DNA of 64,000 nucleotides from an uncultured Thermoplasmata archaeon (GTDB lineage Archaea; Thermoplasmatota; Thermoplasmata; Halarchaeoplasmatales; Halarchaeoplasmataceae): assembly GCA_964394465.1 (NCBI GenBank), contig CAYMXS010000007.1:7086-71085 (forward strand), given 5' to 3'. Below, in pieces: positions 677-59,123 of the stretch. Position 1 is the first letter of the stretch. Each line of letters begins with the position of its first letter. The position numbers and the translations under genes were made by a program. The notes under the pieces are model-generated. The model saw only the letters and a list, made by a program, of their open reading frames with translations. It made no database searches and was not told the origin of the DNA.

Positions 677-1495
677 CTAGGGATTATTCTCATTCGAAAG
701 GTTCTTTATCTTTTCTAATGTATTCTTCCTCTGCCTAATCGAGATAGTAGTGGCGATAAAACCGAGTCCTAAAGCTGTAGGGAACACTACGGGGAGAGAT
801 CGCCGAACTCCATTCTTAGGTTTTACCACTTGAATAGGTACGCCATTAAAAGGGAGCCAGTAGTCTCCTTCGAGAGGTTTAACCAACATCACTAGACTCC
901 ACCTACCATATCTTTTTATCGAGACTCTCAAGGACGTATGCTCAACTTCTTGCCTTGACCTTACTTTGAATCCTTCACCTTTCAACTCATATACTGATTC
1001 TGTTTTTTCATCTAGGTTAGTATACCAATAATGAATATATTGAACCGGCTTTCTTATCCTATTTCCTTGATGCACTGGTAAACTCGGCTCTTCATAGCCT
1101 AAATTCTCTTGAGCATATTTAAGTTGCTTTGGCATCCATTGTTTCCCTATCACCAAAAATTTACACTTGAAAGGAACAAAATAATCTTTTTCCGATGTGC
1201 ATTTATATCTATAGGATATGTTCACAATTTTAATCTCATATCGATGCATAACTAACCTCCGTGGCTCTGAAAAATTACTAGTGTATGGACTGGGCTTGTA
1301 CTTCCGCATATATGCAACTTTTCCATATAATGTACTGTTATACTCTAAATCAGAAAGATAATCCTCTGCGTATTCATCACCGGGTTTTCCAAAAGTTTCT
1401 TCTCTTCCCTGGCCTTTAGCGTTGATCACCGTTAGATTGGATAACAGTAATATAAGCACCACGAAGATCGCAGACAAAGCCACTTTTCTCATCAT
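677..1495 (-). CDS. Secreted or membrane-anchored hypothetical protein with an N-terminal signal peptide.
   Basis: The ORF track gives 677..1540. Start was re-placed at MMRKVALSAIFVVLILLLSNLTVINA, which gives a 4-bp ATGA overlap with the stop of the upstream permease gene. No recognisable domain. Confidence 0.4.
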   Translation of the reverse strand: MMRKVALSAIFVVLILLLSNLTVINAKGQGREETFGKPGDEYAEDYLSDLEYNSTLYGKVAYMRKYKPSPYTSNFSEPRRLVMHRYEIKIVNISYRYKCTSEKDYFVPFKCKFLVIGKQWMPKQLKYAQENLGYEEPSLPVHQGNRIRKPVQYIHYWYTNLDEKTESVYELKGEGFKVRSRQEVEHTSLRVSIKRYGRWSLVMLVKPLEGDYWLPFNGVPIQVVKPKNGVRRSLPVVFPTALGLGFIATTISIRQRKNTLEKIKNLSNENNP

Positions 1496-2259
1496 AATTT
1501 CACCCTTTTGAATATGAACAAAGAAGCGAGAGAAGCCCATCCAACACTGAATATCGGGACCACAAATATGGACATCTTCACCACACCGAAAGTACCTACT
1601 AAATAATTCATGACACTAAGTGATAGATAAGGCAGAACCAAGAATTTTAGAAATAATCCTAAGTTGATCTTGAAAGTCCCGGTCATTATCTCCATCAGCG
1701 GGAATGAGAGAATCACATAGACGGCTGTGAACAACATACCTGAGAGCGTCCTTTTAGATAGCATACCTATACATGCGGTCAGAAAGAAGACATATAGACT
1801 GGATATGAATCCTAGAAATGCATATCTAGCCATCCATCCAGCTATCAAGCCCGACAGTGAACCCCAGTAGCTCGCCGAGAAAAAGAACTGCAGGAACGAT
1901 AAAAACGCCAGCATGGCCAGTATGAAAAGACCAGCCGTCGCCTTCCCCAGGAACAAGACATCTCTGCTGTTAGGTGTCAGAAGGAAAGATGAGCCGGTTT
2001 TTTCCTCCAGTTCCTTTGTAAAGAATTTATTTCCTAAGTAGCCCCCATATATGGTCCAGAGTGGGATATTAAAATATATGCTCCTGAACATGGTCTTTTG
2101 TATATTTATTCTCTTTCCGAACAGGCCCGTGGAGTCATACAGGACAAAATTCAGTATGAATGTGACGATCACGACTATCGGCAGTGAATAGTCCAAAAAT
2201 GTCCTTTTGATCGAATGATGGGCGATCTTATATACAGTCTTTAATTTCTCTAGATTCAT
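1492..2259 (-). CDS. ABC-2 family transporter permease (NosY-like), about 6 TM segments.
   Basis: Polytopic hydrophobic 255-aa protein. Translationally coupled to the downstream ABC ATPase with a 4-bp overlap. Confidence 0.6.
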   Translation of the reverse strand: MNLEKLKTVYKIAHHSIKRTFLDYSLPIVVIVTFILNFVLYDSTGLFGKRINIQKTMFRSIYFNIPLWTIYGGYLGNKFFTKELEEKTGSSFLLTPNSRDVLFLGKATAGLFILAMLAFLSFLQFFFSASYWGSLSGLIAGWMARYAFLGFISSLYVFFLTACIGMLSKRTLSGMLFTAVYVILSFPLMEIMTGTFKINLGLFLKFLVLPYLSLSVMNYLVGTFGVVKMSIFVVPIFSVGWASLASLFIFKRVKL

Positions 2260-40837: not shown

Positions 40838-41383
40838 TTGAAGAACATGTATAAGCATCTAGAGAACTTCAGTTTGAAGGAACTGATAGGGTACTCTATA
40901 GAATCTGAAGAGGCCTCGGCTAGGTTCTACAGCGATTTCGCTGAAACCTCGGTAGAGGAGATAATGAAAGAGCGTTTCAAGAGCCTTGCTAGGGATGAGA
41001 GGATACATAAAAAGGCACTCCTAGATATCCATGAAAAGGAGTTCGGGACCAGGGATTATACGATACCGGAATCTGAGGGACTTCCACCTCACGAGAGTTC
41101 CCATGATTTCGATGACGTAGTCAATCTGATAGATACCTTGGAGAAGGCCATGGAAAACGAGCGCAACGCCTTTAGGATCTATCAGTACCTGGCAAAGAGA
41201 TATGACGACCACAGGCCCATATTTCAATACCTAGCTATCATGGAGAAAGGTCACTACGAATCCATCAAGGCAGAGAGAGATATGCTGGAGGACGAGACCA
41301 TAGAGAGTACGGAACTGGATGAGAAGTCCATCTCGAACCTCTGGGCCGAACATCCCCTGTGCAGTAGAGCCGATAAAGATTAG
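40838..41383 (+). CDS. Ferritin-like diiron protein, divergent paralog 4, lacking the conserved C-terminal tail.
   Basis: Same E/H ligand pattern (ESEE; RDERIH; ENERNAFRIY; MEKGHYES). About 45% identical to paralogs 1-3. Different C-terminus and different promoter region. Confidence 0.55.
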   Translation: MKNMYKHLENFSLKELIGYSIESEEASARFYSDFAETSVEEIMKERFKSLARDERIHKKALLDIHEKEFGTRDYTIPESEGLPPHESSHDFDDVVNLIDTLEKAMENERNAFRIYQYLAKRYDDHRPIFQYLAIMEKGHYESIKAERDMLEDETIESTELDEKSISNLWAEHPLCSRADKD

Positions 41384-44825: not shown

Positions 44826-47800
44826 TTAGTAGTTCAGTTTTATACTCTTCTTCTGGAAGTAGAGTCCTATTCCAATTATGGAAACGACACCTACTAGTAT
44901 CAGCAGATACATCTTAAGGGAGTTCAGCCGGGCATCTTTTTCTCCAGACGTCAAGATATCGAGCCCTTCCTCCTCTTCCGTATCCTGTTTTTCAGGCCAT
45001 CTAGAACTGACCGCTTTGTCCTGGTATACCGTGTCCTGTTCATTGGTAGAGACCTGCTCTTCAACCGTAACATCGTCTATATACCATCCTCTGTAGTCGT
45101 TGTCGTAATCGTCTACCGAGTCGAATATGAACTTGACTTGTATGGTTTGACCAGCATAACCGGAGATATCGATCGTTTCTTTCACGAAGTTGTTCTCAGA
45201 GCCAACGTTGTCGTCACTCGTATCTCTGTAGTAGACCTGGTCACCATTCACCGTTACCTTACACCAGTCGTATTCACCTTCGTGATCTTCAGTCTTGAAC
45301 CAGTGTTCGAAGCTCAAAGTAGCTCCTGAGACACCGTTAAGATCTATTGTCGGTGATGTCAATATCCCGGTCGTGTGTGAACCTGTGTCGTAGTTTCCCG
45401 TGGAATCCTGGCCGTACCACATCGCCTTGGAACCGCTGCTGCTGTCTCCGTACTGATCGCTATCTTGCGTTAGATGCCACAGGCCGCTCGTGTTCCATGG
45501 GTTACCATTTTCGAAGTCTTCGTAGAATATTGTATCACTACTGCCGCCTCCATCGACGACCTGTGGGTCCGGTTGACTCACGATCCAGTCTTCAACGGTG
45601 TCTGTATCCTCCGAAGTATCTTCTCTTCTGATGACCTCTCCTGTAGAAGCCGATAGTTCACTCCAAGCATCTTGTTCCCAGCCCACTTCATCGACCGTCT
45701 GACCGTCTGTATCGTACAGTGTGAGTGTATCCCCGCCGTTGTTCAGTGAAAGGGGCAGGTCCCAAGCATCTGGAGTTTTACCATATTCACTCTCGAAGGT
45801 GTCTTTGTCCCTGCAGACAGTAAGATGAGTGCCTCCAGGTATCGAGATAGAGTCGTCGAAGGAGTAACTCGAGGACGAATCGTCCTTTATACTCCATCCC
45901 GAAAGCTCAACTGGATCTGAACCAGGGTTGAACAGCTCGATGTATTCCCCCTCTGAATCTGTACCTTCCACGTCGTAATATACCTCGGAAAGCAGTACTG
46001 TTTCAGAGGAAGGAGCGCTTCCTTCGTCGGCTTTCACACTCACATCGTCCACGTACCACCCTCGGTAGGCGTTATCATAATCGTCAAGGGTATCGAAACA
46101 GAACTTTATATTCACCGTTTGGCCAGCGTACTCTGATATATCTATCGTCTCTTTGACAAAGTTGTTTTCCGATCCGACGTTCTCGTCCGAGGTGTCTCTG
46201 AAGTACACCTTTTCGTCGTTTATCTTCACCTTTACATGGTCATAGCTGTCTTCATGGTCCTCCGTCTTGAACCAGTGCCTGAAGGAAAGTTCAGCTTGAG
46301 AAGCCTGAGTCATATCTATGGACTCGGAGACGAGTTGGCCCTTGGTTCTAGAGCCGGTGTCGTAGTCACCTGTCGAGTCCTGCCCATACCACATCGAGTG
46401 AGATGAACTGTAACTGTCACCGTACTGGTCGGATTCATCCACTCTATGCCACAGTCCGCTTGTGCTCCAGCCTGAAGAACTCTCGAAGTCATCCTCAAAT
46501 ATAGTGGTCATTTCTTCTCCATCTTCGCTTACATCTATCGTTTTAGATACTGTATCCGTGGCTCCATCGTCGTCCTCAACGGACAAAGAAACGGTGTAGG
46601 TACCAGGGGAGCCGTAAGGATGGCTTGGATCCTGCTGACTTGAAGTCGTGCCATCACCGAAGTCCCATGAGTAGGAAGCGATATCACCATCGTCGTCCGT
46701 GGAAGAATCGCTGAACTGTACAGTTTCACCTACGGTTGGACTAGCCGGTGAGAAGCTGAAGGAGGCAGAGGGTGCCGTGTTGCTCTCTCCGTCGGAATCG
46801 GCTTTGACCGTTATATCGTCAACGTACCAGCCCCTATAGGCGTTATCGTAATCGTCCACTGAATCGAATATGAACTTCAGCTCTACCGTCTGTCCTGTAA
46901 GAGCAGAAAGGTCGATGGTTTCCTTCACGAAGCTGTTCTCCGAACCGACGTTTTCATCCTTTGTGTTCCTGTAGTATACACGATTATTGTTCACCTTTAC
47001 TATCACCTTGTCGTACTCCCCTTCATCGCAGTTCTCAGTCTTGAACCAATGCTCGAAGGAAAGTTCAGCTTGAGAAGCCTGAGTCAGATCTATGCATGGA
47101 GAAGTGAGCTGGCCAGTCGTATGCGAACCTGTATCGTAGTTCCCTGTTGAATCCTGCCCATACCACATGGAGTGAGATGAACTGTAACTGTCACCGTACT
47201 GGTCGGATTCATCCACTCTATGCCAGAGTCCGCTGGTGCTCCAGGCTGAATCCCCTTCAAAATCCTCGTCTAATAATGTGTTGAGGTCTCCTCCACTGCC
47301 GCTCACGTCTACTGTTTTAGAGATAGAGTCCGAAGCGCCTTCGTTATCCGTCACGATCAACTCAACCGTGTAGGTTCCAGAAGAGGAGTAAGTGTGATAG
47401 GGACTTTCTTCTGTAGAACTTGAACCGTCTCCGAAGTACCATGAGTAGGAAGCGATGCTTCCGTCACTGTCTGAGGAACTATCGGTGAACTGTATGGCTT
47501 CTCCCTCGGTTGGATCCGCAGGAGTAAAGCTGAAGTCCGCCGTCGGTGCTTCATTCTGCTCCTCATCTTCTCCTATCGTAACGGTGTAATCCTCTGTTTC
47601 ACCGTACTCCTGGTTCGAAGTCGGATCGGTATGATAACCATCGTATTCCTGCATCACTCTCATCCTTGTCTCTCCGTTTGAAGCGTCGCTTGGGACCGTT
47701 ATGTCCTTCGTAACCGTTAATGGCTCACTGTTACCGTTTCCGACCTCTACAACTGTATCATCGCTAAGATCAAAGTTCTGGCCCCAGTCTATGACCGCTG

Positions 47801-50800
47801 TTACATACTCTGAATAACCACCGGTGCTTAGGGTGACAGACAACTCGTAGGATTGGCCGGGTGCACATGTCTCGGACACACTTCCTGTATGATCTGCGTA
47901 TCCTCCATCGTCACCGGAGTCTTTGTTGATCCCGTTGAAGTTTACGTTCGTTATATATTCATCATAACTAGTATCTCCACCTTCAACGGTGCTGTATCCC
48001 TGAGTGTCGGATTGAACCGAGATATCCTGAGTCTTTGAGTCCGTCGCTCCGTCGTCATCGGTTACGGTCAACTCTACCGTATAGGTGCCCGAAGAGGAAT
48101 AAGTGTGAGATGGACTCGCTTCCGTTGAACTTGAACCGTCTCCGAAGTTCCATGAGTAAGAGCTTATGCTACCGTCTAAGTCCTCCGAGGTATCGGTGAA
48201 CTGTATCGTTTCTCCAGAAGTCGGCTCGGTAGGATCATAGCTGAAGTCAGCCGTGGGTACCGTGTTCTCCTCACTGCTCTGGACTGTTATGTTCTTTGTA
48301 GTAGTGTCCGTCGCCCCTTCGTTATCCGTTACGGTCAACTCTACCGTGTAAGTTCCGGATGAGGAATAACTGTGTGCTGGGTCAGCTTGCGTTGAAGTCG
48401 AACTGTCACCGAAGTTCCAGTTCCATGAAACAATATCGTTCTCAGGCGTTGAACCGTCCTGGAATTGAACCGTATCTTCAGTGGTAGGGTTTGAAGGCGT
48501 GTAATCGAAGCTCGCCGTCGGTCCCTCGTCATCTGACCCTGTAGTCGAGAATGAGAAACTGTAATCTTCTCCCATGGTGTTCCCGACCTGGTCGCTTATG
48601 CTTCCTGAAACAGTAACTTGATAATCCGTATCGGACTGTAACCTGTCGTCCTTCATCTGATAGGCGAAACATGTGTCATAGCCGTCCAGATCGTTCCATT
48701 TATCGTTCTCTGGATCATATTGTGACAGATATCCTTTGTCGTAGCTATTGTCCGTCAGGCTCAACCTGTAACGATCTTCCTCGCTACCAGCGTCTTCCAT
48801 GCTGCATCTTATCCCGTACTGGGCTCCAGCGTCCACTTGGATAGGATCTTCAAGGTTCAAGCTTATCCAAGAGGCTTCTTCTGAACCGGTACCGACATCG
48901 GAAGGTTCGATATATTTAGTCATTAAAGCCTGACCTTCTGGTGCCCCATCTATCAATTGAACCTTTAGATCCTCTGGGGGATTTCCTAACTTGAACATAT
49001 TGAGCTTTAAGGAGCTTATCTCACCGCTGGTCTGAGGCTCGAAACCCTGGACGCACACGTATCCCTTGTAACAGGAAGCGGCATAATCTCCATCCTGGTA
49101 GTTCCCGTCGGTGTACAGTGGCACATCCATCTTCGAACTGTTCTGATCCAGTAGGAGGCCATGTCCAACATCGGGAGTTATATCTATAGTAGAACCGTCA
49201 ACGGTCGAAGTGTCTATGTTCTCCGAGAAATCCACCGTTATTCTTTCTGTGTCTATGGGAACGCTCTGTTCGTTGTCGAAGGGCTCGGTAGAAGTAACTT
49301 GAGGCGATTCCGCGTCAACATGAGCTGAATCCGTCTTCAACTGTGAACTCCCGTCTCCAACGTTATCATCTTCGTAGTAAACTGTTATCGTATCGCCGTG
49401 TGATATTATCAAATCATTAACACCCGATTTCGAGATGTCTATAGACCCTGTGAACTTCCCGGGACTATCATCGCTTTCGGAGAGTTGCACCGTTTCGTTT
49501 GAACCCTCTGTATCGCTGTATATATCAACGTTCTGACTACCAGTACCGGCTACATCTGAATCGAATAATTCTATCTGGACGGTATCCTGAGCGGGATAAA
49601 CGTCTTTGTTAAGCGTTATCTCGCCGTCGGAGCCTTCATCACCGGTGAATTCGACTTCTACTGTACTAGGGATCGTGGATGGGACGTCAGGTGAATTCTC
49701 TGATTCGAAGGTCGGCGCCCCGATCTCGTAACCAGAATCGTAATACTCTACATCGAAAGAGGATATGGTGGTCTCACCGGAGCTCTGCCCCATCTCGAGG
49801 TAGAAGTTCGTTTCTCCCTGACCCTCGTTCCAATCGTCTGCGAACTTGGTCATATCTACAGCCATGAAATCTGGATAGGGATGATCTCCGCCGTCGGAAG
49901 AGTATAATGGATCTCTAGATTCGACTGGGTTATTCGATGGACCTATACCCACTTCAGTACTGGCCGTTCTACTACCCGTCTCTGAGAACCCCCACGTGCC
50001 GAGTAGCTTTGGATGTTCCTGCTCTCCCTCGTAATAGGGGTCTATTAAACGATAGGCCGATTTGTATCCCCCTACGATCTCTCCGAAGCAGTCGTATGTC
50101 ATCCAATAGGTACCGTCATCGTTAGGTCCCCAGTAGGAGCCCCAGGAGTTGGCTACCTTGAACGCGCCGGTCTCACCGTCCTGAGATATGGAATCGTTGT
50201 ATCCCACTATAGTGTTCACGTGGTTGGTCTCATTCTCCACGTACTCCTCGCTTGTCATCACGTTATCGTCTCCGAAATAGCCGAACGCATCTTCATACTC
50301 GTTGGCATCCAAAGCGAGATTGACCAGGTGTTCGTCCTGGAGCCATGTTTTGACCACGTCGACTGAAGAAGTGGATTCGAAGTCACCCGTTCTGAACTGA
50401 GGCGCGCATCTCCAGGCGTCCTCATCGCCCCATGCTGTGACGTTGCTGGCATCATATGGCATAGTTTCAAGGTTCGCACAGCCCAGATCATCTAAAACGT
50501 CTGAAAGCGAATATATGTGGGAGCCTCCGTCCTCACCGCCGTTTACCTTGTTGTAGGCCCAGGCCGGGCTCATAAGGTACTCTTCGTTCCCTGTAGAGGC
50601 GTTTAAGCCGTGTGCTTTTGCCTGCAGAAACGTGTTGGAGTAATATACTATACCCCATGCGGCACAGGAACCCTGCTGTCCCTGATTACCTATGGGTGGG
50701 AAATATTTCCTCTCTGTTAGATCCAGATCGCTATCGGAAAGTATCTGGTCTGTAGGCCCCTTCACGTCTTCGACCACTTTCATGTCGTCGGCCATATCTT

Positions 50801-51086
50801 CGTACGTCTCTTCTGATGGGGGTGCGTAACCGGTTCCGTGGCCGTTGATTATCTCGTTGTAGTCCTTTCCAGTTTCTTTAACACCGAGTTCTGCTTTCAT
50901 CCTCTTCATCTCCGAGGCGCTCAGTTCTCTGGAAACGAACGTGATCTTCTCATCCGCTCTGGTTTTCCCTTTATCATTCACACCCAGACCGTGCTCTATA
51001 TCCTTTATCGCTATCGTCAGACCAGCACTGATCAGTAGGACCGCTACGAAAAGTGCCGCCAATCTGTAGTATCTCTTATCTATCAT
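44826..51086 (-). CDS. Giant acidic cell-surface protein (2086 aa): signal peptide, papain-like C1 cysteine peptidase domain, a ~470-aa uncharacterized region, 3 PKD domains alternating with 3 copies of an unassigned ~165-aa jelly-roll-like repeat, a lamin-tail domain, and a C-terminal TM anchor.
   Basis: C1 motifs QGQQGSCAAWG (Cys), HVNTIVGY (His), NSWGSYWG (Asn). PKD signature WNFGDSS...HSYSSSGTYTVELTVTD. Repeat signature GLWHRVDESDQYGDS..MWYGQDSTGNYDTG...HWFKTE...YRGWYVDD. LTD region EVYYDVEGTDSEGEYIELFNPGSDPVELSGWSI. Starts 19 bp after the stop of the upstream 1011-aa gene, so likely co-transcribed with it. Confidence 0.6.
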   Translation of the reverse strand: MIDKRYYRLAALFVAVLLISAGLTIAIKDIEHGLGVNDKGKTRADEKITFVSRELSASEMKRMKAELGVKETGKDYNEIINGHGTGYAPPSEETYEDMADDMKVVEDVKGPTDQILSDSDLDLTERKYFPPIGNQGQQGSCAAWGIVYYSNTFLQAKAHGLNASTGNEEYLMSPAWAYNKVNGGEDGGSHIYSLSDVLDDLGCANLETMPYDASNVTAWGDEDAWRCAPQFRTGDFESTSSVDVVKTWLQDEHLVNLALDANEYEDAFGYFGDDNVMTSEEYVENETNHVNTIVGYNDSISQDGETGAFKVANSWGSYWGPNDDGTYWMTYDCFGEIVGGYKSAYRLIDPYYEGEQEHPKLLGTWGFSETGSRTASTEVGIGPSNNPVESRDPLYSSDGGDHPYPDFMAVDMTKFADDWNEGQGETNFYLEMGQSSGETTISSFDVEYYDSGYEIGAPTFESENSPDVPSTIPSTVEVEFTGDEGSDGEITLNKDVYPAQDTVQIELFDSDVAGTGSQNVDIYSDTEGSNETVQLSESDDSPGKFTGSIDISKSGVNDLIISHGDTITVYYEDDNVGDGSSQLKTDSAHVDAESPQVTSTEPFDNEQSVPIDTERITVDFSENIDTSTVDGSTIDITPDVGHGLLLDQNSSKMDVPLYTDGNYQDGDYAASCYKGYVCVQGFEPQTSGEISSLKLNMFKLGNPPEDLKVQLIDGAPEGQALMTKYIEPSDVGTGSEEASWISLNLEDPIQVDAGAQYGIRCSMEDAGSEEDRYRLSLTDNSYDKGYLSQYDPENDKWNDLDGYDTCFAYQMKDDRLQSDTDYQVTVSGSISDQVGNTMGEDYSFSFSTTGSDDEGPTASFDYTPSNPTTEDTVQFQDGSTPENDIVSWNWNFGDSSTSTQADPAHSYSSSGTYTVELTVTDNEGATDTTTKNITVQSSEENTVPTADFSYDPTEPTSGETIQFTDTSEDLDGSISSYSWNFGDGSSSTEASPSHTYSSSGTYTVELTVTDDDGATDSKTQDISVQSDTQGYSTVEGGDTSYDEYITNVNFNGINKDSGDDGGYADHTGSVSETCAPGQSYELSVTLSTGGYSEYVTAVIDWGQNFDLSDDTVVEVGNGNSEPLTVTKDITVPSDASNGETRMRVMQEYDGYHTDPTSNQEYGETEDYTVTIGEDEEQNEAPTADFSFTPADPTEGEAIQFTDSSSDSDGSIASYSWYFGDGSSSTEESPYHTYSSSGTYTVELIVTDNEGASDSISKTVDVSGSGGDLNTLLDEDFEGDSAWSTSGLWHRVDESDQYGDSYSSSHSMWYGQDSTGNYDTGSHTTGQLTSPCIDLTQASQAELSFEHWFKTENCDEGEYDKVIVKVNNNRVYYRNTKDENVGSENSFVKETIDLSALTGQTVELKFIFDSVDDYDNAYRGWYVDDITVKADSDGESNTAPSASFSFSPASPTVGETVQFSDSSTDDDGDIASYSWDFGDGTTSSQQDPSHPYGSPGTYTVSLSVEDDDGATDTVSKTIDVSEDGEEMTTIFEDDFESSSGWSTSGLWHRVDESDQYGDSYSSSHSMWYGQDSTGDYDTGSRTKGQLVSESIDMTQASQAELSFRHWFKTEDHEDSYDHVKVKINDEKVYFRDTSDENVGSENNFVKETIDISEYAGQTVNIKFCFDTLDDYDNAYRGWYVDDVSVKADEGSAPSSETVLLSEVYYDVEGTDSEGEYIELFNPGSDPVELSGWSIKDDSSSSYSFDDSISIPGGTHLTVCRDKDTFESEYGKTPDAWDLPLSLNNGGDTLTLYDTDGQTVDEVGWEQDAWSELSASTGEVIRREDTSEDTDTVEDWIVSQPDPQVVDGGGSSDTIFYEDFENGNPWNTSGLWHLTQDSDQYGDSSSGSKAMWYGQDSTGNYDTGSHTTGILTSPTIDLNGVSGATLSFEHWFKTEDHEGEYDWCKVTVNGDQVYYRDTSDDNVGSENNFVKETIDISGYAGQTIQVKFIFDSVDDYDNDYRGWYIDDVTVEEQVSTNEQDTVYQDKAVSSRWPEKQDTEEEEGLDILTSGEKDARLNSLKMYLLILVGVVSIIGIGLYFQKKSIKLNY

Positions 51087-51105: not shown

Positions 51106-54100
51106 TTATCTCCTTTTTGTTTTGGTCTCATCTCGTTCTTTTTTTCTGCTTCTAAGTGAGTAGACACCTCCGCCTACAAGACAGAAAGATGTGCATACTA
51201 GTAAGAAAATGGTTTTCAGGCCCACTCCGGTCAACATGTTCGGAGCGAGCGAGCTACTCTCTTCGTTCTCTTTCGTTGCTTCTCCTCGCGTTGGAGCGTT
51301 TTCATAGGAAGCGCCACCGAAATCCTCAGCAGCCTCTGAGGTACTTGTGACCTGACCGGCGTCGGCCTTGACCTCTATATCGTCCACGTACCAGCCCCGA
51401 TAACCGTTGTCATAATCGTCTATGGAATCGAAGATGAACTTGATCGTAACCGTTTGACCGGTATAAGAGGACAAGTCTATGGTCTCCTTCACGAAATCAT
51501 CTTCTGAACCAACGTTGTCGTCACTCGTGTCTCTGTAGTAGACCTGTTCTCCGTTGACCGTCACCTTGACCTGGTCGAATTCATCGTCGTAATCTTCGGT
51601 TCTAAACCAGTGTGAGAAGCTCAACTCTGCCTGCGCTGCCTCTAACAGGTCGATAGTCGGAAGAGTAAGAACCCCTCTAGTATGTGAACCGGTATCGTAA
51701 GTTCCCGTGGAATCCTGACCGTACCATATAGCGTTTGATCCATCGTTGGCGTCTCCGTACTGGTCGTTCTCATCCACTGTATGCCATAGACCAGTTGTAC
51801 TGTATCCCGAGGGATCGCCTTCGAAGCCCTGCGTGTATATTGAATTTAGACCGTCATTACCACCGTCATCGTTATCATCATCATCCCCGTCACCTTCTGA
51901 CCCACTGGAAACTTTCACATCGTCTACATACCAACCGCGATAGTCATTGTTGTAATCGTCTATGGAATCGAAGGTGAACTCGATCTCTACCGTTTGACCC
52001 GCATAAGATGAGATATCGATGGTCTCTTCGACGAAGTTGTCTTCTGAGCCAACATCATCGTCTGTCGTGTCTCTGTAATACACCTTCTCTCCGTTCACCG
52101 TGACTTTCACCTTGTCATAGTTACCGTCGTCGTAGTTCTCCGTCTCGTACCAGTGCTGAAAGCTCAACGAAGCCTCAGCAGCAGAGCTCAGGTCTACCGA
52201 TTTGCTCAACGAACCGGTCGTATGTGAACCGGTATCGTAATCTCCTGAGGAATCCTGACCGTACCACATGGCGTTGGTTCCACTGCTGCTGTCTCCGTAC
52301 TGATCGTTTTCTGAAACGAGGTGCCATAATCCGTTGGTCGACCATGCTGATGATCCGTCCTCGAAATCCTCGTCTATCGTACTGGTTTCACCACCATCGT
52401 TTCCGCTGCTCACCGATACATCTCTCGTAGATGTGGATGAAGAACCGTCGTTATCTTCGACGGTCAGTGAAACAGTGTAAGTGCCTTCAGAATCAAAGTC
52501 GTGTGTAGGGTCCTGTTCGTTACTGTTGGTACCGTCGCCGAAGTCCCAGGACCACGAAGTTATAGAGCCATCTGGGTCAGAAGACACGTCGGTGAATTCT
52601 ACATTCAACTCGTTCACTTGATGCTCGAAGGAAGACTCAGGGCCTTCATTCTCGTCGTTTCCGCCTGACGATGTAGAAGTAACCTTCACATCGTCCATAT
52701 GCCAGTTATCCGACCATTCAGGGTCTCCGTCCGTCTGCCTGTACATTACCTTGAAGTCTGAATGGAACGCTTCTGAAGGCAGCTCTACATTCATCTGGAT
52801 GATCTCTCCTGCTGTTCCTCCGCCGGCATACGTTTTTAGGTGATCCCAGTTTCCTTCATTGTCTTTGTACGAAACGACCAGATCTTCTCCCTCGTCTGGA
52901 TTTTCACTGAAACTGTCCTTACCTCTGCGTATCCACGTTTTCAACCTTGCATCTTGAACTCCGTTGATATCTATAGTGGGGGAAACGACACTGGCGGTTC
53001 CACCGCAGGTGTAAAGCGAGTAGGAGCCAGAACCGGTACTCTCCGATCCATAATTCGAAGTGATGCCTGCATGACTTCCGTCGTTAGTGTTGGTAGACCA
53101 GTCGTTCAGTGAACCGTCTTCGAAGTCGTCCTCGAATATCGTCGTCGGGCCACCAATTACTTCTGCGTTCAGTTCGTAAGTCCCGTCGCCGCCGTCCGAA
53201 TGTACCATGATTATGTAAGTTCCGGCTTCCGGGTTATCTATAGTCAAGGATTCGTCTGTATCAGACCAGCCGTCGCTCTTTTTGTCATGGTCCGAAAGGG
53301 TCGGCTCCTCTCCTTTACTCACATAGAGATCGAAATCGGTGAACCACCCTCCGGAACCGTCCAAGTCTAAGGTCAGCTCGTCACGGGCCTGGTCTAACTC
53401 CAACGTGTAATACTGTCTATAATCGTCCTCTTTTAATTCCCCCGAGACTTCGTTCTGCGTGTTCAGTTCATGATAACCGTTATCTCCGTCCTGCATGTGC
53501 AGGAACGTGTACGTCTCGTCGTCACTCAGTTCCCAGTCAGCTCCGAAATTACATGACGAATGATAAGATATCTCGCCGTTACCCAGGTAAAGTGCGTTAT
53601 GCTGTATATGACCGTCTCCATTATGATCGTAAGCTATCACATCACCGACATGTAATTGATCTACACTTGAGACCTCTTCAGCATATCCTTCCTCTAAGAG
53701 AAAATCGACGAAGTTCTGAGCTCCGGGTTCTCCATATGTAGGCGGAACTCTTGAAGGAACGGGGATTCCTCCACCCTTCTGGTTTTCCTCGTCACCGACA
53801 CAGCATGAGATAAAATGCGTACAGTCCCATCCTCCCGAGACTTCCGTGCCTTGGTCCAGTTCTACGTAATCCGTCTGGGTCTCCCAGAAGTACCCATCGC
53901 TGGGTACCACGTCCCAGTACTCGTAGGCGTATTCATAGGCTGATCTACGGTCGTAGAAGGAAGCAGGTTCATCCATGAGTGAATCATCATCTGATGTTTT
54001 ATCCGAGCTGCCCGCTAGTTGTTCATGGCCTTCACCTATAGAGGCGAAACTGACCATGAACGCTGAGAACAGCAGGACCAGCACCACACCTACTCCTACC

Positions 54101-54141
54101 AACTTGACCCCTTTACTATCTTTATCTTCTTTTTTTATCAT
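51106..54141 (-). CDS. Giant surface protein (1011 aa): N-terminal TM, NlpC/P60-superfamily amidase-like (Amidase_6-like) Cys/His domain, PPC (pre-peptidase C-terminal) domain, 3 copies of the ~165-aa repeat (the first divergent), PKD domain, Asp-rich linker, C-terminal TM.
   Basis: Amidase-like SGGWDCTHFISCCV...GDVIAYDHNGDGHIQHNALYLG. PPC region DLYVSKGEEPTL...GTYIIMVHS. Repeats with GLWH..ENDQYGD..WYGQDS.G.YDTG. Confidence 0.55.
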   Translation of the reverse strand: MIKKEDKDSKGVKLVGVGVVLVLLFSAFMVSFASIGEGHEQLAGSSDKTSDDDSLMDEPASFYDRRSAYEYAYEYWDVVPSDGYFWETQTDYVELDQGTEVSGGWDCTHFISCCVGDEENQKGGGIPVPSRVPPTYGEPGAQNFVDFLLEEGYAEEVSSVDQLHVGDVIAYDHNGDGHIQHNALYLGNGEISYHSSCNFGADWELSDDETYTFLHMQDGDNGYHELNTQNEVSGELKEDDYRQYYTLELDQARDELTLDLDGSGGWFTDFDLYVSKGEEPTLSDHDKKSDGWSDTDESLTIDNPEAGTYIIMVHSDGGDGTYELNAEVIGGPTTIFEDDFEDGSLNDWSTNTNDGSHAGITSNYGSESTGSGSYSLYTCGGTASVVSPTIDINGVQDARLKTWIRRGKDSFSENPDEGEDLVVSYKDNEGNWDHLKTYAGGGTAGEIIQMNVELPSEAFHSDFKVMYRQTDGDPEWSDNWHMDDVKVTSTSSGGNDENEGPESSFEHQVNELNVEFTDVSSDPDGSITSWSWDFGDGTNSNEQDPTHDFDSEGTYTVSLTVEDNDGSSSTSTRDVSVSSGNDGGETSTIDEDFEDGSSAWSTNGLWHLVSENDQYGDSSSGTNAMWYGQDSSGDYDTGSHTTGSLSKSVDLSSAAEASLSFQHWYETENYDDGNYDKVKVTVNGEKVYYRDTTDDDVGSEDNFVEETIDISSYAGQTVEIEFTFDSIDDYNNDYRGWYVDDVKVSSGSEGDGDDDDNDDGGNDGLNSIYTQGFEGDPSGYSTTGLWHTVDENDQYGDANDGSNAIWYGQDSTGTYDTGSHTRGVLTLPTIDLLEAAQAELSFSHWFRTEDYDDEFDQVKVTVNGEQVYYRDTSDDNVGSEDDFVKETIDLSSYTGQTVTIKFIFDSIDDYDNGYRGWYVDDIEVKADAGQVTSTSEAAEDFGGASYENAPTRGEATKENEESSSLAPNMLTGVGLKTIFLLVCTSFCLVGGGVYSLRSRKKERDETKTKRR

Positions 54142-54211
54142 CTTTTTCCTCCTGATGAGATAGCTCTTTTCTTCTGTTTCCGGCTACCCCCTGCTTATAT
54201 AAAAAGAGAAT

Positions 54212-54244
54212 CCGCATATATGCAGGAATCTAGGGATTATGCGC
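54212..54244 (-). promoter_or_regulatory. Conserved palindromic element CCGCATATATGC-N12-ATTATGCG, about 70-100 bp upstream of the 1011-aa surface-protein gene; putative promoter (TATA-like ATATAT) or operator.
   Basis: Same element with identical 12-nt spacing at 59046-59077, upstream of the 1551-aa gene. The GCATATATGC core is a perfect palindrome. Confidence 0.45.
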
Positions 54245-54327
54245 ACCCGTCATCGGGACAAAATTTAGAACTCTAGACAAGTGCAAAAAAGGTGTAAAAA
54301 AGAGGGAGTTAACGGGTTTTTATCTAG

Positions 54328-57300
54328 CTATCCTAGAAGGGATGACCTTCCCTTCGTTTTGACCGGATGATCCCTTCCTTCGTTCTTAGAGTCGAGTTCT
54401 GTTCTCGTACCTCTTCTACTCCTAGCGTCCGCAAATTCCTCTTCATCGTCGTCTCTCAGTATTATAGCGCCGAAAACACCGCTTATCGTCACTATCAGGA
54501 GGGACCCGATTATCCCTATGACGGAGACGAACCCAACTGGACTTTCATCCTCTTCTTTCTCATCAATGGACCTCGAATCCCCGCTGTTCCTCAGGTCTTT
54601 ACAGGTCATGCCGTCTTTCAAGGTCGTGAGGACCTCGTTTGACCCGTCTTTATCCTGGTCGAGTTTCATAGTCACTTTCGGATTTCGGTCGTTCCTCAGT
54701 GAACTCCAACTTTTACTCGATAGTGTGTGGATAGAACCTCTGTTGTAGCCTATCTCGCTTACCAGCACTTTGCTCTCTTTACCTTTGGGTTTTACATGTT
54801 TCGCCCCCATGTTATACGTCTGATCGGTAGAGCTCTGGACCGAGACCGTCATGTTGGAATAGATGTTTATAGTCGTCGTCTCACCCTGCTCGGTTTCAAA
54901 ACCGGTCATGTTGACGAAGTCTGCGCCGGACTCGTTGAAGTCTCCCAGGTCCATGGAGAACGTGCCGTCTTCCTGTCCCGTTACCGTAACTGTATAGTTC
55001 CTCTCGTCGTGTGGCAGCTTGAAGCTCTTGTGTTCTCCATACACCGCGCTCGAGTCCGAGATCTCGTTGTCAACGCCGTCTCCACCCAGTGATATCGTGT
55101 TCCCATAGGAATCCTCCACCGTCACGTTCACGGGGCAGTTGATGGACAATCCGAAGTTGTCCAGTATGGCGTCCCATATGATCGAGGCGTCGAAGTGTGA
55201 AAGGAAGTAATCCATCACATCTGGGTAGGAAGTAGGCTCGGAGCACTCGTAGCTCTCCATGAACTCACCGCCGTAGTAGACTCCGCCGGAACTATCGTAG
55301 GTCTGGAACCTCATCCCGGACATCGCCAGTTGGATACCGAAGACCGTAGCACCGAGATCTATGTTGAAGCCTGTGCTCTGCATCTTCTGCGATTTGACCG
55401 AGTAGTATATGGGTAGTTTTCCTTCCGCGACGCCTTCAGCTATACCCTTTATCAGGTTCATGTCCACCTGCCCCTCTTCTGTATTATCTGCGAAGATGTC
55501 TTCCCATCTCTCCTCGTATTGGCTCACTGGAAGGTTGAATGTGATCTTGTAGCCGGACTCACTGGTACTAGAAACCTGCTGAAGCGGTGAAAGGAGGTTG
55601 AAGTATCCGTTGACTATCGGAGTGAGCGTTCCAGAACCATCGACGCTCAACTCCAGATTGACCATCTCTGGGAAGCACTGAGGATCGTCTCCGCCTGAAA
55701 GTATGAAATCAGTCATCGTCTCTAGGTCGCTGAACCTGCTTTTCAGTGTGATCTCGCCCTTACCTTCAAACGAACTTCCGCCCAGGAAGGCGCATTCAGA
55801 TGCAAAGCTTCCGGAGAACCTTGCCTTAGTCGCGAGTGTGACGCTTCCATCGAAGTTGAAGTTCACGTACGCCTTACCTCTGAACATGCCGTTCAAGGCG
55901 GCGTTGAAAAGACTGAAGTCCGCTCCCGAGTCATAGTCCTCTCCATCGTGGTTACCTGAAAGACCTATCTGTGGATCCAATGTAGCGCTCCCACTGGCCT
56001 CGCCGTATACTCCCGCATGTATATTTCCGACCGGGTCTGTATCATCTACATCTGGATAGAGCGAGGACTCCAGCAATCCTATCGCCGCATCCGAGAGCAT
56101 GGAGAGCGGGGGTCCTGAAACGTGCATGCCGTAGAGTGCCAGTTTCGTCGAGATGTATGTCGCGACCAGATCTTTCTCCTCTTCCGTCAGGTCCTGAAAG
56201 CCCATGTATCCACCGAACAGAAGGCCACCCACCAAGGATGATTGAAGTGAAGCCTCAGCAGAACCTATCTGTGCCTTGTATCCCGGCTCTATACCTATGC
56301 CGGCCCATGCCTCTCCGAACAGTGAAGGGTTCCCGAGATTGTCCAGTGATAACATCCCGAAGACGTTGGCTTCGCCGTGCAGTCCATATTCTCCACCGAC
56401 CTGACCGTATATACCCAATTTCGTATTCTTCTTCTGTTCCTTCAGTTCAAATGTGAACGGCTCGGATGTTGTCTCGTATTCGACCTGATTCCCGTCGATA
56501 CTCAACGAATCTACACTGACCGAAAGTTCTTCATCTGATATTTCACTCAGATCCAACCAGATCTCCGCCATGCCGTGGTTGGTTCCTACCTGATGTGTGG
56601 TTACTGGGTTATCTGAGATCACCTGAACGTCCCAGGGTGAAACCGAGTAAGATACGTCCACGTTGTCGACCCCGTTGTTCGCCGTGTTCCTCACCTGAAG
56701 GTAGACTGAACAGTTGTATCCTTTCTTTATGTGGTCTTTCTGGAAGGCTCTAGCCACGTATAACGAGCTGCTTCCTTCATCCGCTTCTATAGAGACATCG
56801 TCTACATACCAACCTCTGTAATCGTTAGCGTTGCCATCTACTGAATCGAAGACGAACTTGACCTGTAATTGTTGACCCGCATATTCAGATATATCTATCG
56901 TTTTCTTTACGAAGTCGTTCTCGGAGCCGACGTTTGGATCCGACGTATCTTTGTAGTAAACCTCTTCGCCGTTTATTATCACCTTGACCTGGTCGTACTC
57001 TCCGTCGTAGCTTTCGGTCTTGAACCAGTGCTGGAAAGTCAGTTGTGCCTCACTCGAAGGAGGAACGTAAACCGAAGGGCTGGTCAAAGCTCCGTTGGTC
57101 CTTTCGCCTGTATTGTAATCTCCACTGCCTGCCTGTCCATACCACATCGATTTAGAACCGCTTTTACTGTCACCGTACTGATCGCTTTCTGAAGTGAGGT
57201 GCCATAGACCGGAACTTGTCCATGAAGAAGCGCCGCCTTCAAAGTCCTCCGAAAGTAGAGATTCCATGCCGTCGTCGGCTTCGTTTATCGTCACTGTTGT

Positions 57301-58983
57301 AGAGTAAGAATCGCTCGCCCCTTCGTCGTCCTGTACGGTCAAAGTGACATCATATGTTCCAGGGGAACCGTATGTGTGTGAAGGGCTCTGTTCTGAGGAA
57401 GTAGCTCCATCTCCGAACTCCCAGGAGTAAGAAGCGATGTTTCCATCGTCGTCGTATGAATCATCCTGGAACTGGACCGTATCTTCCGTTGTAGGGTTCG
57501 AGGGTGTAAAACCGAAGGAAGCGCTGGGAGGGGAGTTCGTTTCACTCTCATCCATATCCGCTTTGATCATAACGTCGTCTATATACCAGCCGCGGTAATC
57601 GTTGTAAGAGCCGTCCATGGAGTCGAACTTGAACTCAAGGTCTATCGTCTGTCCCGCGTGATCAGATATATCTATCGTCTCTTTGACAAAGTTGTTTTCC
57701 GATCCGACGTTCGGGTCTGAAGTGTCCCTATAGTAAACCTGGTCGCCGTTGACTAGAACAGTGATCTGATCGTACTCTCCGTCGTAATTTTCCGTTTCGA
57801 ACCAGTGCTCGAAGGAGAGTTCAGCCTGAGTTGCCCCGTTCAAATCTATAGATGACGAGGCTAAGGAACCGGAGGTCCGTGACCCTGTATCGTAGTCTCC
57901 CGAGGAATCCTGGCCGTACCACATGGAATTCGAACCGCTGCTGCTGTCACCATACTGATCACTCTCGGAAGTAAGGTGCCACAGACCACCGGTACCCCAG
58001 CCTAAAGGCCCCTCTTCAAAGTTGTCGGAGAATACGGTGTTCATATCTCCTTGATCTTGACTTATCGATAGATCTTTAGAATAGGTATCGGTCGAACCGT
58101 CGTTGTCTTCGACCTCTAACGAAACCGTGTAAGTTCCCGCTGAACCGTAGGTATGTGAAGGATCCTGTTCTGAAGAAGTCGAGCCGTCACCGAACTCCCA
58201 TGAACAAGAGACTATGTTTCCATCTGAATCGGACGACTCATCGGTGAATTGAATGGTTTCACCGACTTCAGGACTGCTCGGTGAATATGTGAAGGAGGCC
58301 GAAGGGTTATTTCCGCCGTCGTTCGAATCCGTCTGTACACTCACATCGTCCACGTACCAGCCGCGATGATCGTTTGAATATTTATCTAGTGAATCGAAGA
58401 TGAAGTCGATCTCTATTTCTTGTCCTGCAAAGGAAGAGATATCGATCTCTTCTTCAACAAAGTTGTTTTCCGAGCCGACGTTAGGATCCGAGCAATCCCT
58501 GTAATAAACCTGCTGTCCGTTGACGTTCACTTTCACCTGGTCGTAATCTCCTGAGTAACTCTCGGTTTCGAACCAGTGCTGAAAAGTGAGTTCCGCGTCG
58601 GAAACACCGCTAAGGTCTATCGAAGGTGAGCCCAAAGAACCACCCGTCTGTGAACCAGTGGCGTAATTTCCTGTCGAATCCTCACCGTACCACATCGATT
58701 TAGAACCGCTGTGACTGTCACCGTACTGATCGCCTTCTGACGTGATATGCCAGAGACCGGAAGTACTCCAGCCCGTTCCGCCGTTTTCGAACTCCGTCGA
58801 GTAGACCACGTTTGAGTTTTCTAACTCTTGAGTGTTGGAATCAGCTGTTCTCTCAGGATCATCAGCTTTTACCGACCTTACGAAGCCCGTGAGTCCACTG
58901 GCTAAAAGAAGTATCACCGCAGAGACACAGACTATCTTCAACGCCCTGCTCTTCAAAACCTTTTTAGGTAATCTTTCATTCAT
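54328..58983 (-). CDS. Giant surface protein (1551 aa): signal peptide, 3 copies of the ~165-aa repeat alternating with PKD domains, a ~800-aa non-repetitive G/S-rich beta-rich region, and a C-terminal TM plus charged cytoplasmic tail.
   Basis: Repeats GLWHITSEGDQYGDS...; PKD signatures WEFGDGSTSSEQDPSHTYGSAGTYTVSLEVED; C-terminal TM VGFVSVIGIIGSLLIVTISGVFGAIIL. Confidence 0.55.
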   Translation of the reverse strand: MNERLPKKVLKSRALKIVCVSAVILLLASGLTGFVRSVKADDPERTADSNTQELENSNVVYSTEFENGGTGWSTSGLWHITSEGDQYGDSHSGSKSMWYGEDSTGNYATGSQTGGSLGSPSIDLSGVSDAELTFQHWFETESYSGDYDQVKVNVNGQQVYYRDCSDPNVGSENNFVEEEIDISSFAGQEIEIDFIFDSLDKYSNDHRGWYVDDVSVQTDSNDGGNNPSASFTYSPSSPEVGETIQFTDESSDSDGNIVSCSWEFGDGSTSSEQDPSHTYGSAGTYTVSLEVEDNDGSTDTYSKDLSISQDQGDMNTVFSDNFEEGPLGWGTGGLWHLTSESDQYGDSSSGSNSMWYGQDSSGDYDTGSRTSGSLASSSIDLNGATQAELSFEHWFETENYDGEYDQITVLVNGDQVYYRDTSDPNVGSENNFVKETIDISDHAGQTIDLEFKFDSMDGSYNDYRGWYIDDVMIKADMDESETNSPPSASFGFTPSNPTTEDTVQFQDDSYDDDGNIASYSWEFGDGATSSEQSPSHTYGSPGTYDVTLTVQDDEGASDSYSTTVTINEADDGMESLLSEDFEGGASSWTSSGLWHLTSESDQYGDSKSGSKSMWYGQAGSGDYNTGERTNGALTSPSVYVPPSSEAQLTFQHWFKTESYDGEYDQVKVIINGEEVYYKDTSDPNVGSENDFVKKTIDISEYAGQQLQVKFVFDSVDGNANDYRGWYVDDVSIEADEGSSSLYVARAFQKDHIKKGYNCSVYLQVRNTANNGVDNVDVSYSVSPWDVQVISDNPVTTHQVGTNHGMAEIWLDLSEISDEELSVSVDSLSIDGNQVEYETTSEPFTFELKEQKKNTKLGIYGQVGGEYGLHGEANVFGMLSLDNLGNPSLFGEAWAGIGIEPGYKAQIGSAEASLQSSLVGGLLFGGYMGFQDLTEEEKDLVATYISTKLALYGMHVSGPPLSMLSDAAIGLLESSLYPDVDDTDPVGNIHAGVYGEASGSATLDPQIGLSGNHDGEDYDSGADFSLFNAALNGMFRGKAYVNFNFDGSVTLATKARFSGSFASECAFLGGSSFEGKGEITLKSRFSDLETMTDFILSGGDDPQCFPEMVNLELSVDGSGTLTPIVNGYFNLLSPLQQVSSTSESGYKITFNLPVSQYEERWEDIFADNTEEGQVDMNLIKGIAEGVAEGKLPIYYSVKSQKMQSTGFNIDLGATVFGIQLAMSGMRFQTYDSSGGVYYGGEFMESYECSEPTSYPDVMDYFLSHFDASIIWDAILDNFGLSINCPVNVTVEDSYGNTISLGGDGVDNEISDSSAVYGEHKSFKLPHDERNYTVTVTGQEDGTFSMDLGDFNESGADFVNMTGFETEQGETTTINIYSNMTVSVQSSTDQTYNMGAKHVKPKGKESKVLVSEIGYNRGSIHTLSSKSWSSLRNDRNPKVTMKLDQDKDGSNEVLTTLKDGMTCKDLRNSGDSRSIDEKEEDESPVGFVSVIGIIGSLLIVTISGVFGAIILRDDDEEEFADARSRRGTRTELDSKNEGRDHPVKTKGRSSLLG

Positions 58984-59045
58984 ATTAGCCCCTTCCTTTG
59001 CTTCTTCTTGTGGTAAAAAGGTCCCTATGATTATTTAAAGAGACT

Positions 59046-59077
59046 CCGCATATATGCGAAAAGTTTCTAATTATGCG
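59046..59077 (-). promoter_or_regulatory. Second copy of the CCGCATATATGCG-N12-ATTATGCG element, 63-94 bp upstream of the 1551-aa surface-protein gene.
   Basis: Near-identical to the 54212-54244 element in sequence, spacing and position relative to the start codon. Confidence 0.45.
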
Positions 59078-59123
59078 GGGCCAAAGAAGGAGGTAAAATA
59101 GAAGATAAAAGCGGTAAAATTAG

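Follow-up and report, generated by a model that had tools for sequence, protein, structure and literature searches.

Three genes for large surface proteins follow one another on the minus strand of the window, by which is meant the whole 64-kb stretch of DNA that was analysed, and two intergenic regions among and before them carry copies of one composite element, here called A and B (Table 1). All the genes tied to the two elements lie on the minus strand. The 2086-aa gene is probably co-transcribed with the 1011-aa gene; the preliminary description had given a 19-nt gap between the two and, for the 2086-aa gene, an AGGAG that lies 9 nt before the ATG, and both are correct. The stop codon of the upstream gene is separated from the element by runs of T, which in archaea signal termination; this indicates that the element belongs with the downstream promoter.

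Table 1. Features of the two window loci, and the intragenic copies (positions are those of the window)
Feature	Position	Strand	Remarks
Copy A, perfect 12-nt palindrome CGCATATATGCG	59047..59058	-	Before the 1551-aa gene; weak hairpin in the terminator scan
Copy A, upstream half-site CGCATAAT (ATTATGCG on the plus strand)	59070..59077	-	12 nt before GCATATATGC
Copy A, TATA-box-like TTTAAATA	59032..59039	-	7 nt past the palindrome, 48 nt before the ATG at 58983; predicted function, from the archaeal TATA consensus
Three T4 tracts, likely terminator of the upstream gene	59096..59119	-	Between the stop of a HerA-like gene (59124) and copy A; predicted function
Copy B, TGCATATATGCG (minus strand)	54213..54224	-	Perfect 10-nt palindrome at 54214-54223; before the 1011-aa gene
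Copy B, upstream half-site CGCATAAT	54236..54243	-	12-nt spacing as in copy A
Copy B, TATA-box-like TTTATATA	54196..54203	-	9 nt past the palindrome, 54 nt before the ATG at 54141
Two T6 tracts, likely terminator of the 1551-aa gene	54285..54301	-	Between the stop of the 1551-aa gene (54328) and copy B; predicted function
1551-aa secreted, C-terminally anchored PKD/MAM-like surface protein	54328..58983	-	Downstream of copy A
1011-aa surface protein (Amidase_6, PPC, PKD, MAM-like)	51106..54141	-	Downstream of copy B
2086-aa surface protein (PKD, LTD, GEVED, MAM-like)	44826..51086	-	19 nt past the 1011-aa gene; without an element of its own
Intragenic copy TGCATATATGCGG	1304..1316	-	In a secreted-protein gene (called at 272 aa); no TATA box after it, no upstream arm
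Intragenic near-copy ACCATATATGGGGG	2042..2055	-	In an ABC-2 permease gene; has a 13-mer in common with the CCCATATATGGG variant of the second cluster

Composition and occurrence of the element in the window

Read in the direction of the genes, both window copies show the same layout: CGCATAAT-N12-GCATATATGCGG is followed after 7–9 nt by a TATA box of the canonical archaeal type (TTTATATA or TTTAAATA) and, 48–54 nt later, by the ATG. On the plus strand the composite reads CCGCATATATGC-N12-ATTATGCG, and exactly two sites in the window match it without a mismatch, 54212–54243 and 59046–59077, while shuffled versions of the window yielded no match even when two mismatches were allowed. The second pair of coordinates and the identical spacing agree with the preliminary description, in which the first site had been drawn one base too long (to 54244). 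The distance to the start codons was given there as 63–103 bp; measured to the edges of the element, it is 63–94 nt for the 1551-aa gene and 71–102 nt for the 1011-aa gene. What the two copies have in common extends, in gene direction, to CGCATAAT-N12-GCATATATGCGGA-N-TCTCTTT and then the TATA box; elsewhere the intergenic DNA is dissimilar, as are the N-terminal coding sequences, and the signal peptides are not alignable. Dyad symmetry that continues past the palindrome of 12–16 nt is notable in copy A only (11 of 20 positions) and is not a general property. An Rfam search of the window returned three tRNAs only, with no match at the element.

The plus-strand sequence CCGCATATATGC taken alone occurs exactly at 1304, 54212 and 59046. 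With up to one mismatch it is found five times in the window, against 0.13 expected, and none of the shuffles reached five. It had been claimed that three copies are well above chance, and these counts bear this out for the element as such, but the copy at 1304 is suggestive only, because a match of at least 13 nt to the 54212 element arose in 3 of 100 shuffles; the two copies have a 14-mer in common. The site at 1304 is present inside the secreted-protein gene where it had been placed, and the coding sequence there is real (its codons read VAYMRK), but it does not stand as a regulatory copy, having neither the N12 arm nor a TATA box, and is an intragenic copy and not a promoter element. Both intragenic copies lie in an ABC-transporter operon that looks unrelated.

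A second cluster and the palindrome-plus-TATA module

A homologue search with the 1551-aa protein led to a second cluster of surface-protein genes in the same MAG (contig CAJOVN010000002.1; proteins of 1242, 1277 and 2844 aa); the search with the 1011-aa protein gave no full-length orthologues. The 1277-aa gene is preceded by CCCATATATGGG and then TTTATATA, and the 2844-aa gene by CGCATATATGCG and then the TATA box TTATATAT. Both palindromes and both TATA boxes are kept in a diverged copy of this cluster (protein 69% identical). In the orthologous promoters conservation runs from the palindrome, or from about 20 nt before it, through to the ATG; 5' of this block the DNA has diverged and differs by indels of 46 and 19 nt. 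Near the second cluster there is a MarR gene, which is paired with a MatE pump. Among relatives of the organism, Ca. Natronoplasma, Ca. Saliniplasma and other Thermoplasmatota have an AlaRS that is 70–76% identical.

The sequence common to the two clusters amounts to 12–16 nt only, and the promoter features that survive between them are the palindrome and the TATA box, with the spacing of the two. Taken earlier as part of the motif, the N12-ATTATGCG arm is present in both window copies but is limited to them, the second cluster having in its place AATATGCC or nothing recognisable. Given that the arm is confined to the window pair and that the module recurs, the conserved unit is a palindrome set at a constant distance from the TATA box.

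The palindrome, of 12–16 nt, has the consensus (C/T)(G/C)CATATATG(C/G)G, then G, and the module as a whole can be written as YSCATATATGSGG with a TATA box 7–9 nt later. This distance between the end of the palindrome and the TATA-like octamer is found in all six copies (four promoters and two orthologous ones), and so is dyad symmetry, with palindromes of 10–16 nt, a feature compatible with a dimeric DNA-binding protein. The combination of the CATATATG core and the TATA-like octamer occurs four times in 112 kb of same-species DNA and in none of 300 dinucleotide shuffles; the core alone occurs seven times there, compared with 1.3 ± 1.1 expected.

The carriers of the module are four PKD/MAM surface-protein promoters in the two clusters. 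In about 120 kb of same-species DNA the module was absent before some 100 other genes, among them those for tRNA synthetases, folate enzymes and ETF; a motif widespread before housekeeping genes, the outcome that the preliminary description had named as speaking against its proposal, is not what this DNA contains. No further copy was found in the 8.5 kb to the left of the window. In the same genome, three genes for surface proteins of 1242, 1830 and 1870 aa are without the element, and four other PKD proteins taken from the homologue matches in other MAGs are without the palindrome and serve as negative examples. The spacers between palindrome and TATA box (GAGTCTC, GATTCTCTT, GCTGAGCG and GGTACGC) do not have the ...TA that precedes most other TATA boxes of the window, which, in this small sample, would fit a weak BRE that needs an activator.

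Possible roles of the palindrome

The reading that we favour, with a probability of roughly 0.55, is that the palindrome is an operator or an upstream activating site, bound by a homodimeric regulator of the PKD/MAM surface-protein genes. A dimeric regulator had already been proposed for the window promoters, and the proposal is supported and extended by the presence of the palindrome before two further PKD/MAM genes and by its retention in the diverged copy of the cluster. A homodimeric factor bound beside BRE/TATA would help or hinder the recruitment of TBP and TFB. The centre of the palindrome is about 17–19 bp from that of the TATA box, which would place it at roughly -45 from the predicted start site; this is the position from which archaeal activators recruit TBP or TFB. 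Several surface-protein transcription units could be co-regulated through a factor at the palindrome, and the extra half-site CGCATAAT, found 12 nt further upstream in the window promoters only, may bind a second subunit or dimer. Among the genes adjoining the clusters of the window, Pfam assignments revealed no transcription-factor gene, either of the HTH type or of another regulator type. The evidence consists of four independent promoters plus two orthologous copies, from paralogous genes of one species complex, so that shared ancestry of the promoters explains part of their similarity.

Another way of looking at the palindrome, which we consider unlikely, is to regard it as part of the core promoter, that is, as an alternative or second TATA box or as an unusual BRE for a particular TBP/TFB paralogue, with TTTATATA acting as a proximal element near -10. 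The core of the palindrome is (AT)3, the distance to the downstream A/T box is fixed in every copy, a start site just past the downstream A/T block would be geometrically possible, and CCATATATAG stands 26 nt before the probable ATG in the promoter of the 1242-aa gene. However, TTTATATA and TTTAAATA resemble the other TATA boxes of the window far better than CATATATG does, and a G/C-clamped ATATAT occurs in no other promoter of the approximately 120 kb. With the archaeal core promoter (TTTAWATA plus BRE) the element shares the A/T-rich core and the location in the promoter region; it differs from it in the separate TATA box 7–9 nt downstream, in its G/C arms and in its dyad symmetry, and we know of no archaeal TATA or BRE element with G/C-rich dyad arms. 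Compared with TTTAWATA, the palindrome probably does not qualify as an archaeal TATA/BRE, CATATATG being flanked by G/C and followed in each case by a better TATA box. The earlier suggestion that it might be the TATA box itself is unlikely, as a better one (TTTATATA, TTTAAATA or TTATATAT) follows in six of six copies.

The palindrome exists in two symmetric flavours, CGCATATATGCG and CCCATATATGGG, each of which is kept in the orthologous promoter, and both arms always change together. For a base-specific dimer, the symmetric arm change in CCCATATATGGG should weaken both half-sites, and a role based on structure fits this change at least as well. Such a role would be that of a G/C-clamped (AT)3 site that acts through melting or a small cruciform and is read by shape or through the minor groove; equally, a pair of paralogous regulators with swapped specificity could split the surface-protein genes into two sub-regulons. 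These readings of the two flavours are improbable as they stand; if true, they would point to an uncultured archaeon that may switch between variants of its surface coat.

A comparably small probability is given to a role at the end of the upstream gene, where the element, as a hairpin or a protein roadblock, would terminate, insulate or stabilise the preceding transcript. All four copies are located between tandem co-directional genes, three of the four upstream genes encode surface proteins, and in a terminator scan both window copies were picked out as short G+C stems with T-rich sequence after them. The symmetric change from CGC/GCG to CCC/GGG preserves base pairing, and the T of copy B gives a U-G pair in the sense transcript only. 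Against this, the stems are of 4–6 bp, with folding energies of -5.7 to -11.8 kcal/mol and z-scores of -2.3 to +1.1 relative to shuffles, and the T-run, which is part of the TATA box, starts 6–9 nt past the stem; with folding this weak and the T-run not directly after the stem, an intrinsic terminator (hairpin plus U-tract) was rejected. Each of the four intergenic regions has better terminator tracts, of T5–T7, upstream of the element, so that most transcripts should stop short of it, and in the orthologues the palindrome is contiguous with the conserved block of promoter and 5'UTR and not with the 3' part of the upstream gene, which has diverged.

Least probable of all is an inherited remnant, a piece of ancestral promoter retained by tandem-duplicated paralogues without a specific regulatory role: near-identical MAM-like modules do recur across the proteins, the window promoters have more than the palindrome in common (CGCATAAT, GGAnTCTCTTT) and paralogous rubrerythrin genes of the same window also have common promoter sequence, but neither the signal peptides nor the N-terminal coding regions can be aligned and other intergenic DNA has diverged, the survival of palindrome, TATA box and spacing alone between the clusters is a signature of constraint, the dyad symmetry is kept despite the arm change, and the element persists at 69% protein identity while the adjacent DNA took indels.

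Wider searches and known regulatory systems

A scan of 185,579 reference genomes, a collection without the source genome, for GCATATATGCGG-N0-12-TTTWWATA produced 84 matches, against about 57 expected by our own estimate, all of them in unrelated organisms and mostly in bacteria. The matches in Nostocales are conserved coding sequence, which we take to be PhoH from its translation (AYMRG). In the JGI metagenomes, CGCATAWT-N11-13-GCATATATGCG gave 26 matches, about the chance level by our own estimate, and no relative of the element; one unrelated locus is represented among them in nine samples. A widespread repeat or MITE-like element was rejected, given that the clusters have 12–16 nt in common and that the matches in the collections are unrelated and near chance. 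A literature search on the assembly and run accessions found no paper.

Upstream activating sites are known in archaea for Ptr2 of Methanocaldococcus jannaschii, for TFB-RF1 of Pyrococcus furiosus and, in archaellum operons, for EarA and ArnR/ArnR1. Like these sites, the palindrome is a short site directly upstream of BRE/TATA in a subset of promoters and, as in the case of EarA and ArnR, the promoters are those of cell-surface structures; unlike them, it has an unrelated sequence and a putative regulator, which may activate or repress, and it comes from an uncultured Thermoplasmatota archaeon. The glycolytic motif of TrmB/TrmBL1 in Thermococcales, TATCAC-N5-GTGATA, is likewise dyad-symmetric and located before functionally related genes, and in both cases the outcome would depend on where the site lies relative to the TATA box. 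The arms of that motif are separated by a spacer, whereas the present palindrome is contiguous, its G/C arms flanking an (AT)3 centre; it also has two symmetric arm variants and precedes genes for surface proteins and not for sugar metabolism.

To our knowledge, the regulation of transcription in uncultured Thermoplasmatota is essentially unstudied, and the way in which archaea control large, fast-evolving surface proteins is poorly known. The element offers a testable cis-regulatory candidate: its consensus and its place beside the TATA box are defined, and at least four promoters, spread over two gene clusters, are its targets. It could be used as bait for the regulator and, combined with a genome-wide scan, could delimit a cell-envelope regulon. 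On its own, it is a further predicted operator, fairly ordinary, and not a new principle.

A literature search for the sequence of the palindrome returned synthetic test oligonucleotides only, and no natural regulatory site was described among them. The synthetic dodecamer d(CGCATATATGCG) is a test duplex for minor-groove binders and for the AT-hook-like binding of H-NS, Lsr2 and MvaT (e.g. PMC4466236, PMC6906086). Copy A and the copy that precedes the 2844-aa gene have exactly the sequence of the dodecamer; the published duplexes are in vitro model oligonucleotides from bacterial work, whereas the element described here is a natural promoter sequence. This work shows that the narrow minor groove of (AT)3 in the context of CGCATATATGCG is a good target for minor-groove readers.

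Occurrence of the element in the window

The 12-mer CCGCATATATGC is found exactly at 1304, 54212 and 59046 of the window, and five matches with at most one mismatch are present where 0.13 are expected. The composite CCGCATATATGC-N12-ATTATGCG, which the preliminary description had reported twice, does occur in both places, although one of its ends has to be moved from 54244 to 54243, and it is absent from all shuffles of the window, even at two or fewer mismatches; the observation is therefore real. The finding also reaches past the window, to a second gene cluster and to the diverged copy of that cluster.

Genes and palindromic elements of the surface-protein clusters (window positions; elements read along transcription)
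Feature	Position	Strand	Arrangement
HerA-like ATPase	59124-60323	minus	
1551-aa protein	54328-58983	minus	
1011-aa protein	51106-54141	minus	
2086-aa protein	44826-51086	minus	
Copy A, 5' of 1551-aa gene	59046-59077	minus	CGCATAAT-tagaaacttttc-GCATATATGCG-gagtctc-TTTAAATA; ATG 48 nt on
Copy B, 5' of 1011-aa gene	54212-54243	minus	CGCATAAT-ccctagattcct-GCATATATGCG-gattctctt-TTTATATA; ATG 54 nt on
Copy C, 5' of 2844-aa gene (second cluster)			CGCATATATGCG-gctgagcg-TTATATAT
Copy D, 5' of 1277-aa gene (second cluster)			CCCATATATGGG-ggtacgc-TTTATATA, inside 16-nt palindrome CCCCCATATATGGGGG

The palindrome of copy A is the perfect 12-mer CGCATATATGCG, and the octamers 3' of copies A and B match the TATA boxes of other window genes (for example TTTATAAT and TTTAAATA), which lie 33-45 nt 5' of the start codons. 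Palindrome and TATA box are here called the module, and the half-site 12 nt further upstream the arm. The likeness between the two copies is confined to a block of approximately 60 nt, while the remaining intergenic DNA and the N-terminal coding sequences differ. All three large proteins (1551, 1011 and 2086 aa) have signal peptides, C-terminal membrane anchors and PKD and InhA-like MAM modules, with LTD, GEVED, PPC and Amidase_6 in some; the 2086-aa gene follows the 1011-aa gene after a gap of 19 nt and has AGGAG 9 nt 5' of its ATG, just as had been described.

The copy at 1304-1316 lies, again as described, inside a secreted-protein gene (272 aa; the site codes for VAYMRK), and no TATA box follows it. 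A second intragenic site, ACCATATATGGGGG (2042-2055), is located in the neighbouring ABC-2 permease gene. Copy B has a 14-mer in common with these sites and copy D a 13-mer; matches of at least 13 nt to copies B and D turned up in 3/100 and 2/100 shuffles. The two sites may be real additional binding sites or a coincidence. Positions 1-4000, which contain both intragenic palindromes, are A+T-rich (38-44% G+C vs about 48-50% elsewhere) and hold genes for a NosD/beta-helix protein, the secreted 272-aa protein, an ABC transporter and cation efflux; this stretch could be an island that was acquired or that is related to the envelope.

The second cluster and the specificity of the module

A protein search with the 1551-aa protein identified paralogues in the same MAG, one of them in a second cluster of three tandem PKD/MAM proteins (1242, 1277 and 2844 aa; contig CAJOVN010000002.1), in which the module is present in both internal intergenic regions. 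A diverged copy of this cluster (protein 69% identical), obtained from MAG GCA_905333415.1 and run ERR5414701, retains both modules (CCCCCATATATGGGGG, CCGCATATATGCGG) with their TATA boxes. In pairwise alignments of the two, the sequences 5' of the palindrome have drifted apart and are interrupted by indels of 46 and 19 nt; conservation above 90% starts at the palindrome (D) or approximately 20 nt upstream, at AATATGCCCC (C), and extends to the ATG. The palindrome thus marks where the constrained promoter block begins on its 5' side.

A hairpin, CCGAGG-N9-CCTCGG, is also present in the 5'UTR of the 2844-aa gene, immediately 5' of the ribosome-binding region (13940-13980 of L120 and 3967-4007 of L124, pieces of DNA outside the window). 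Its stem is kept in the diverged copy and its loop has changed (ATACCCCCT vs ACACCACCT); it may serve to control translation. Genes for a small Ras/Roc/Arf-like GTPase (713-1519 of the outside piece L116) and a Roadblock/LC7 protein (7285-7704 of L115) lie near the surface-protein clusters of this genome.

The search for the module covered 112 kb of non-redundant DNA of the same species (the window together with L120, L116 and a portion of L118) and a further 8.5 kb left of the window. The CATATATG core with a TATA-like octamer within 7-12 nt occurs four times in the 112 kb vs none in 300 dinucleotide shuffles, and the core alone seven times (1.3 ± 1.1 expected); the module precedes none of roughly 100 other genes examined, and the 8.5 kb contain none. 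It is also absent at three other surface-protein genes of the same genome (1242, 1830 and 1870 aa); hence not every member of the family has it. The window also contains four closely spaced rubrerythrin paralogues (37998-41383; genes at 37998-38549, 38682-39212, 39322-39846 and 40838-41383), two of which have an identical promoter stretch, ATAAGTATTTATAATCT, approximately 43 nt 5' of the ATG; promoter sharing between paralogues is therefore not peculiar to surface-protein genes.

The six promoter copies (A to D and the two orthologous ones) all have (C/T)(G/C)CATATATG(C/G)G, then G, and a palindrome-to-TATA spacing of 7-9 nt. The arm, counted as part of the element when it was first described, does stand at N12 as CGCATAAT in both window copies, but only there: copy C has AATATGCC near this position, inversely oriented and shifted by 3 nt, and in copy D the position holds no recognisable sequence.

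In public genome and metagenome collections, from which the source species is absent, only unrelated matches to the element were found, in numbers near chance, the chance number being our own estimate. Two conserved sequences of Nostocales genomes matched the scan pattern (outside pieces L007, L047, L048, L050, L081; L029, L032); one looks like PhoH coding sequence from its translation, APLAYMRGRTLNNAF, and both are unrelated to the archaeal element.

Proposed role of the palindrome

We know of no described archaeal regulator motif that matches the palindrome, and the published work found contains its sequence only in a synthetic dodecamer with which minor-groove ligands and H-NS, Lsr2 and MvaT domains were tested. 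Judged from sequence, the element is best filed as a predicted promoter-proximal palindromic operator in an archaeon. The palindrome would serve as the operator or upstream activating site of a homodimeric regulator (probability roughly 0.55), because its dyad symmetry fits, its recurrence is confined to a restricted set of related genes, it is conserved between the diverged cluster copies, and its position is fixed, directly 5' of the BRE/TATA region. The distance between palindrome and TATA centres is about 17-19 bp, and the palindrome centre would fall at roughly -45 from the expected start site, the same location as the sites of Ptr2, TFB-RF1, EarA and ArnR, archaeal activators that act at about -45.

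At the BRE position of the module, the 7-9 nt are rich in G/C or in pyrimidines and do not have the ...TA that stands before most other TATA boxes here, which, in these few cases, would suit an activator-dependent promoter. It is unlikely that the palindrome itself belongs to the core promoter, where a special TBP/TFB pair would use it as BRE or alternative TATA box. Even less probable is that it acts on the co-directional gene upstream of it, as a 3'-end element, insulator or hairpin. T-tracts, the archaeal termination signal, lie between the upstream stop codon and the element (two T6 runs at 54285-54301 for copy B, three T4 runs at 59096-59119 for copy A), from which we infer the order stop codon, terminator, element, TATA box, 5'UTR with Shine-Dalgarno, ATG. 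The T-tracts thus come before the element, the folding energies are poor, and the conservation pattern also speaks against such a role. A mere paralogous remnant is the most doubtful reading, given that palindrome, TATA box and spacing survived selectively.

As regards the homodimeric regulator, a simple base-specific dimer does not account for the symmetric arm change, CGC/GCG to CCC/GGG, of which each form is retained in the respective orthologue; this leaves some probability to a structure-based or two-regulator reading. The genes flanking the window cluster include no regulator. As for the second cluster, a MarR gene in its vicinity is paired with a MatE pump and makes an unconvincing candidate.

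Host organism

The host is an archaeon. One clue is a tRNA of 103 nt (11590-11692, plus strand; Rfam match of 56.7 bits, missed by ARAGORN), which probably contains an intron; others are a diphthamide synthase gene and, on a different contig of this genome, an Orc1/Cdc6 gene. Among named organisms, Candidatus Thermoplasmatota, Ca. Natronoplasma and Ca. Saliniplasma have the closest alanyl-tRNA synthetases (70-76% identity), and window genes are also found in MAGs GCA_905333785.1 and GCA_905333475.1. Two independent MAG assemblies have contigs that break off within the HerA-like gene, shortly 5' of copy A (at approximately 59340 and 59975, the ends of L002 and L001), which suggests strain variation or an assembly problem there. 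The window also encodes an acyl-CoA dehydrogenase followed by ETF beta and ferredoxin-fused ETF alpha, as well as the folate-dependent C1 enzymes FolD, GcvT and SHMT (4562-7865, 8199-9041, 32663-33937, 43460-44755), and this gene content hints at the metabolism of the host.
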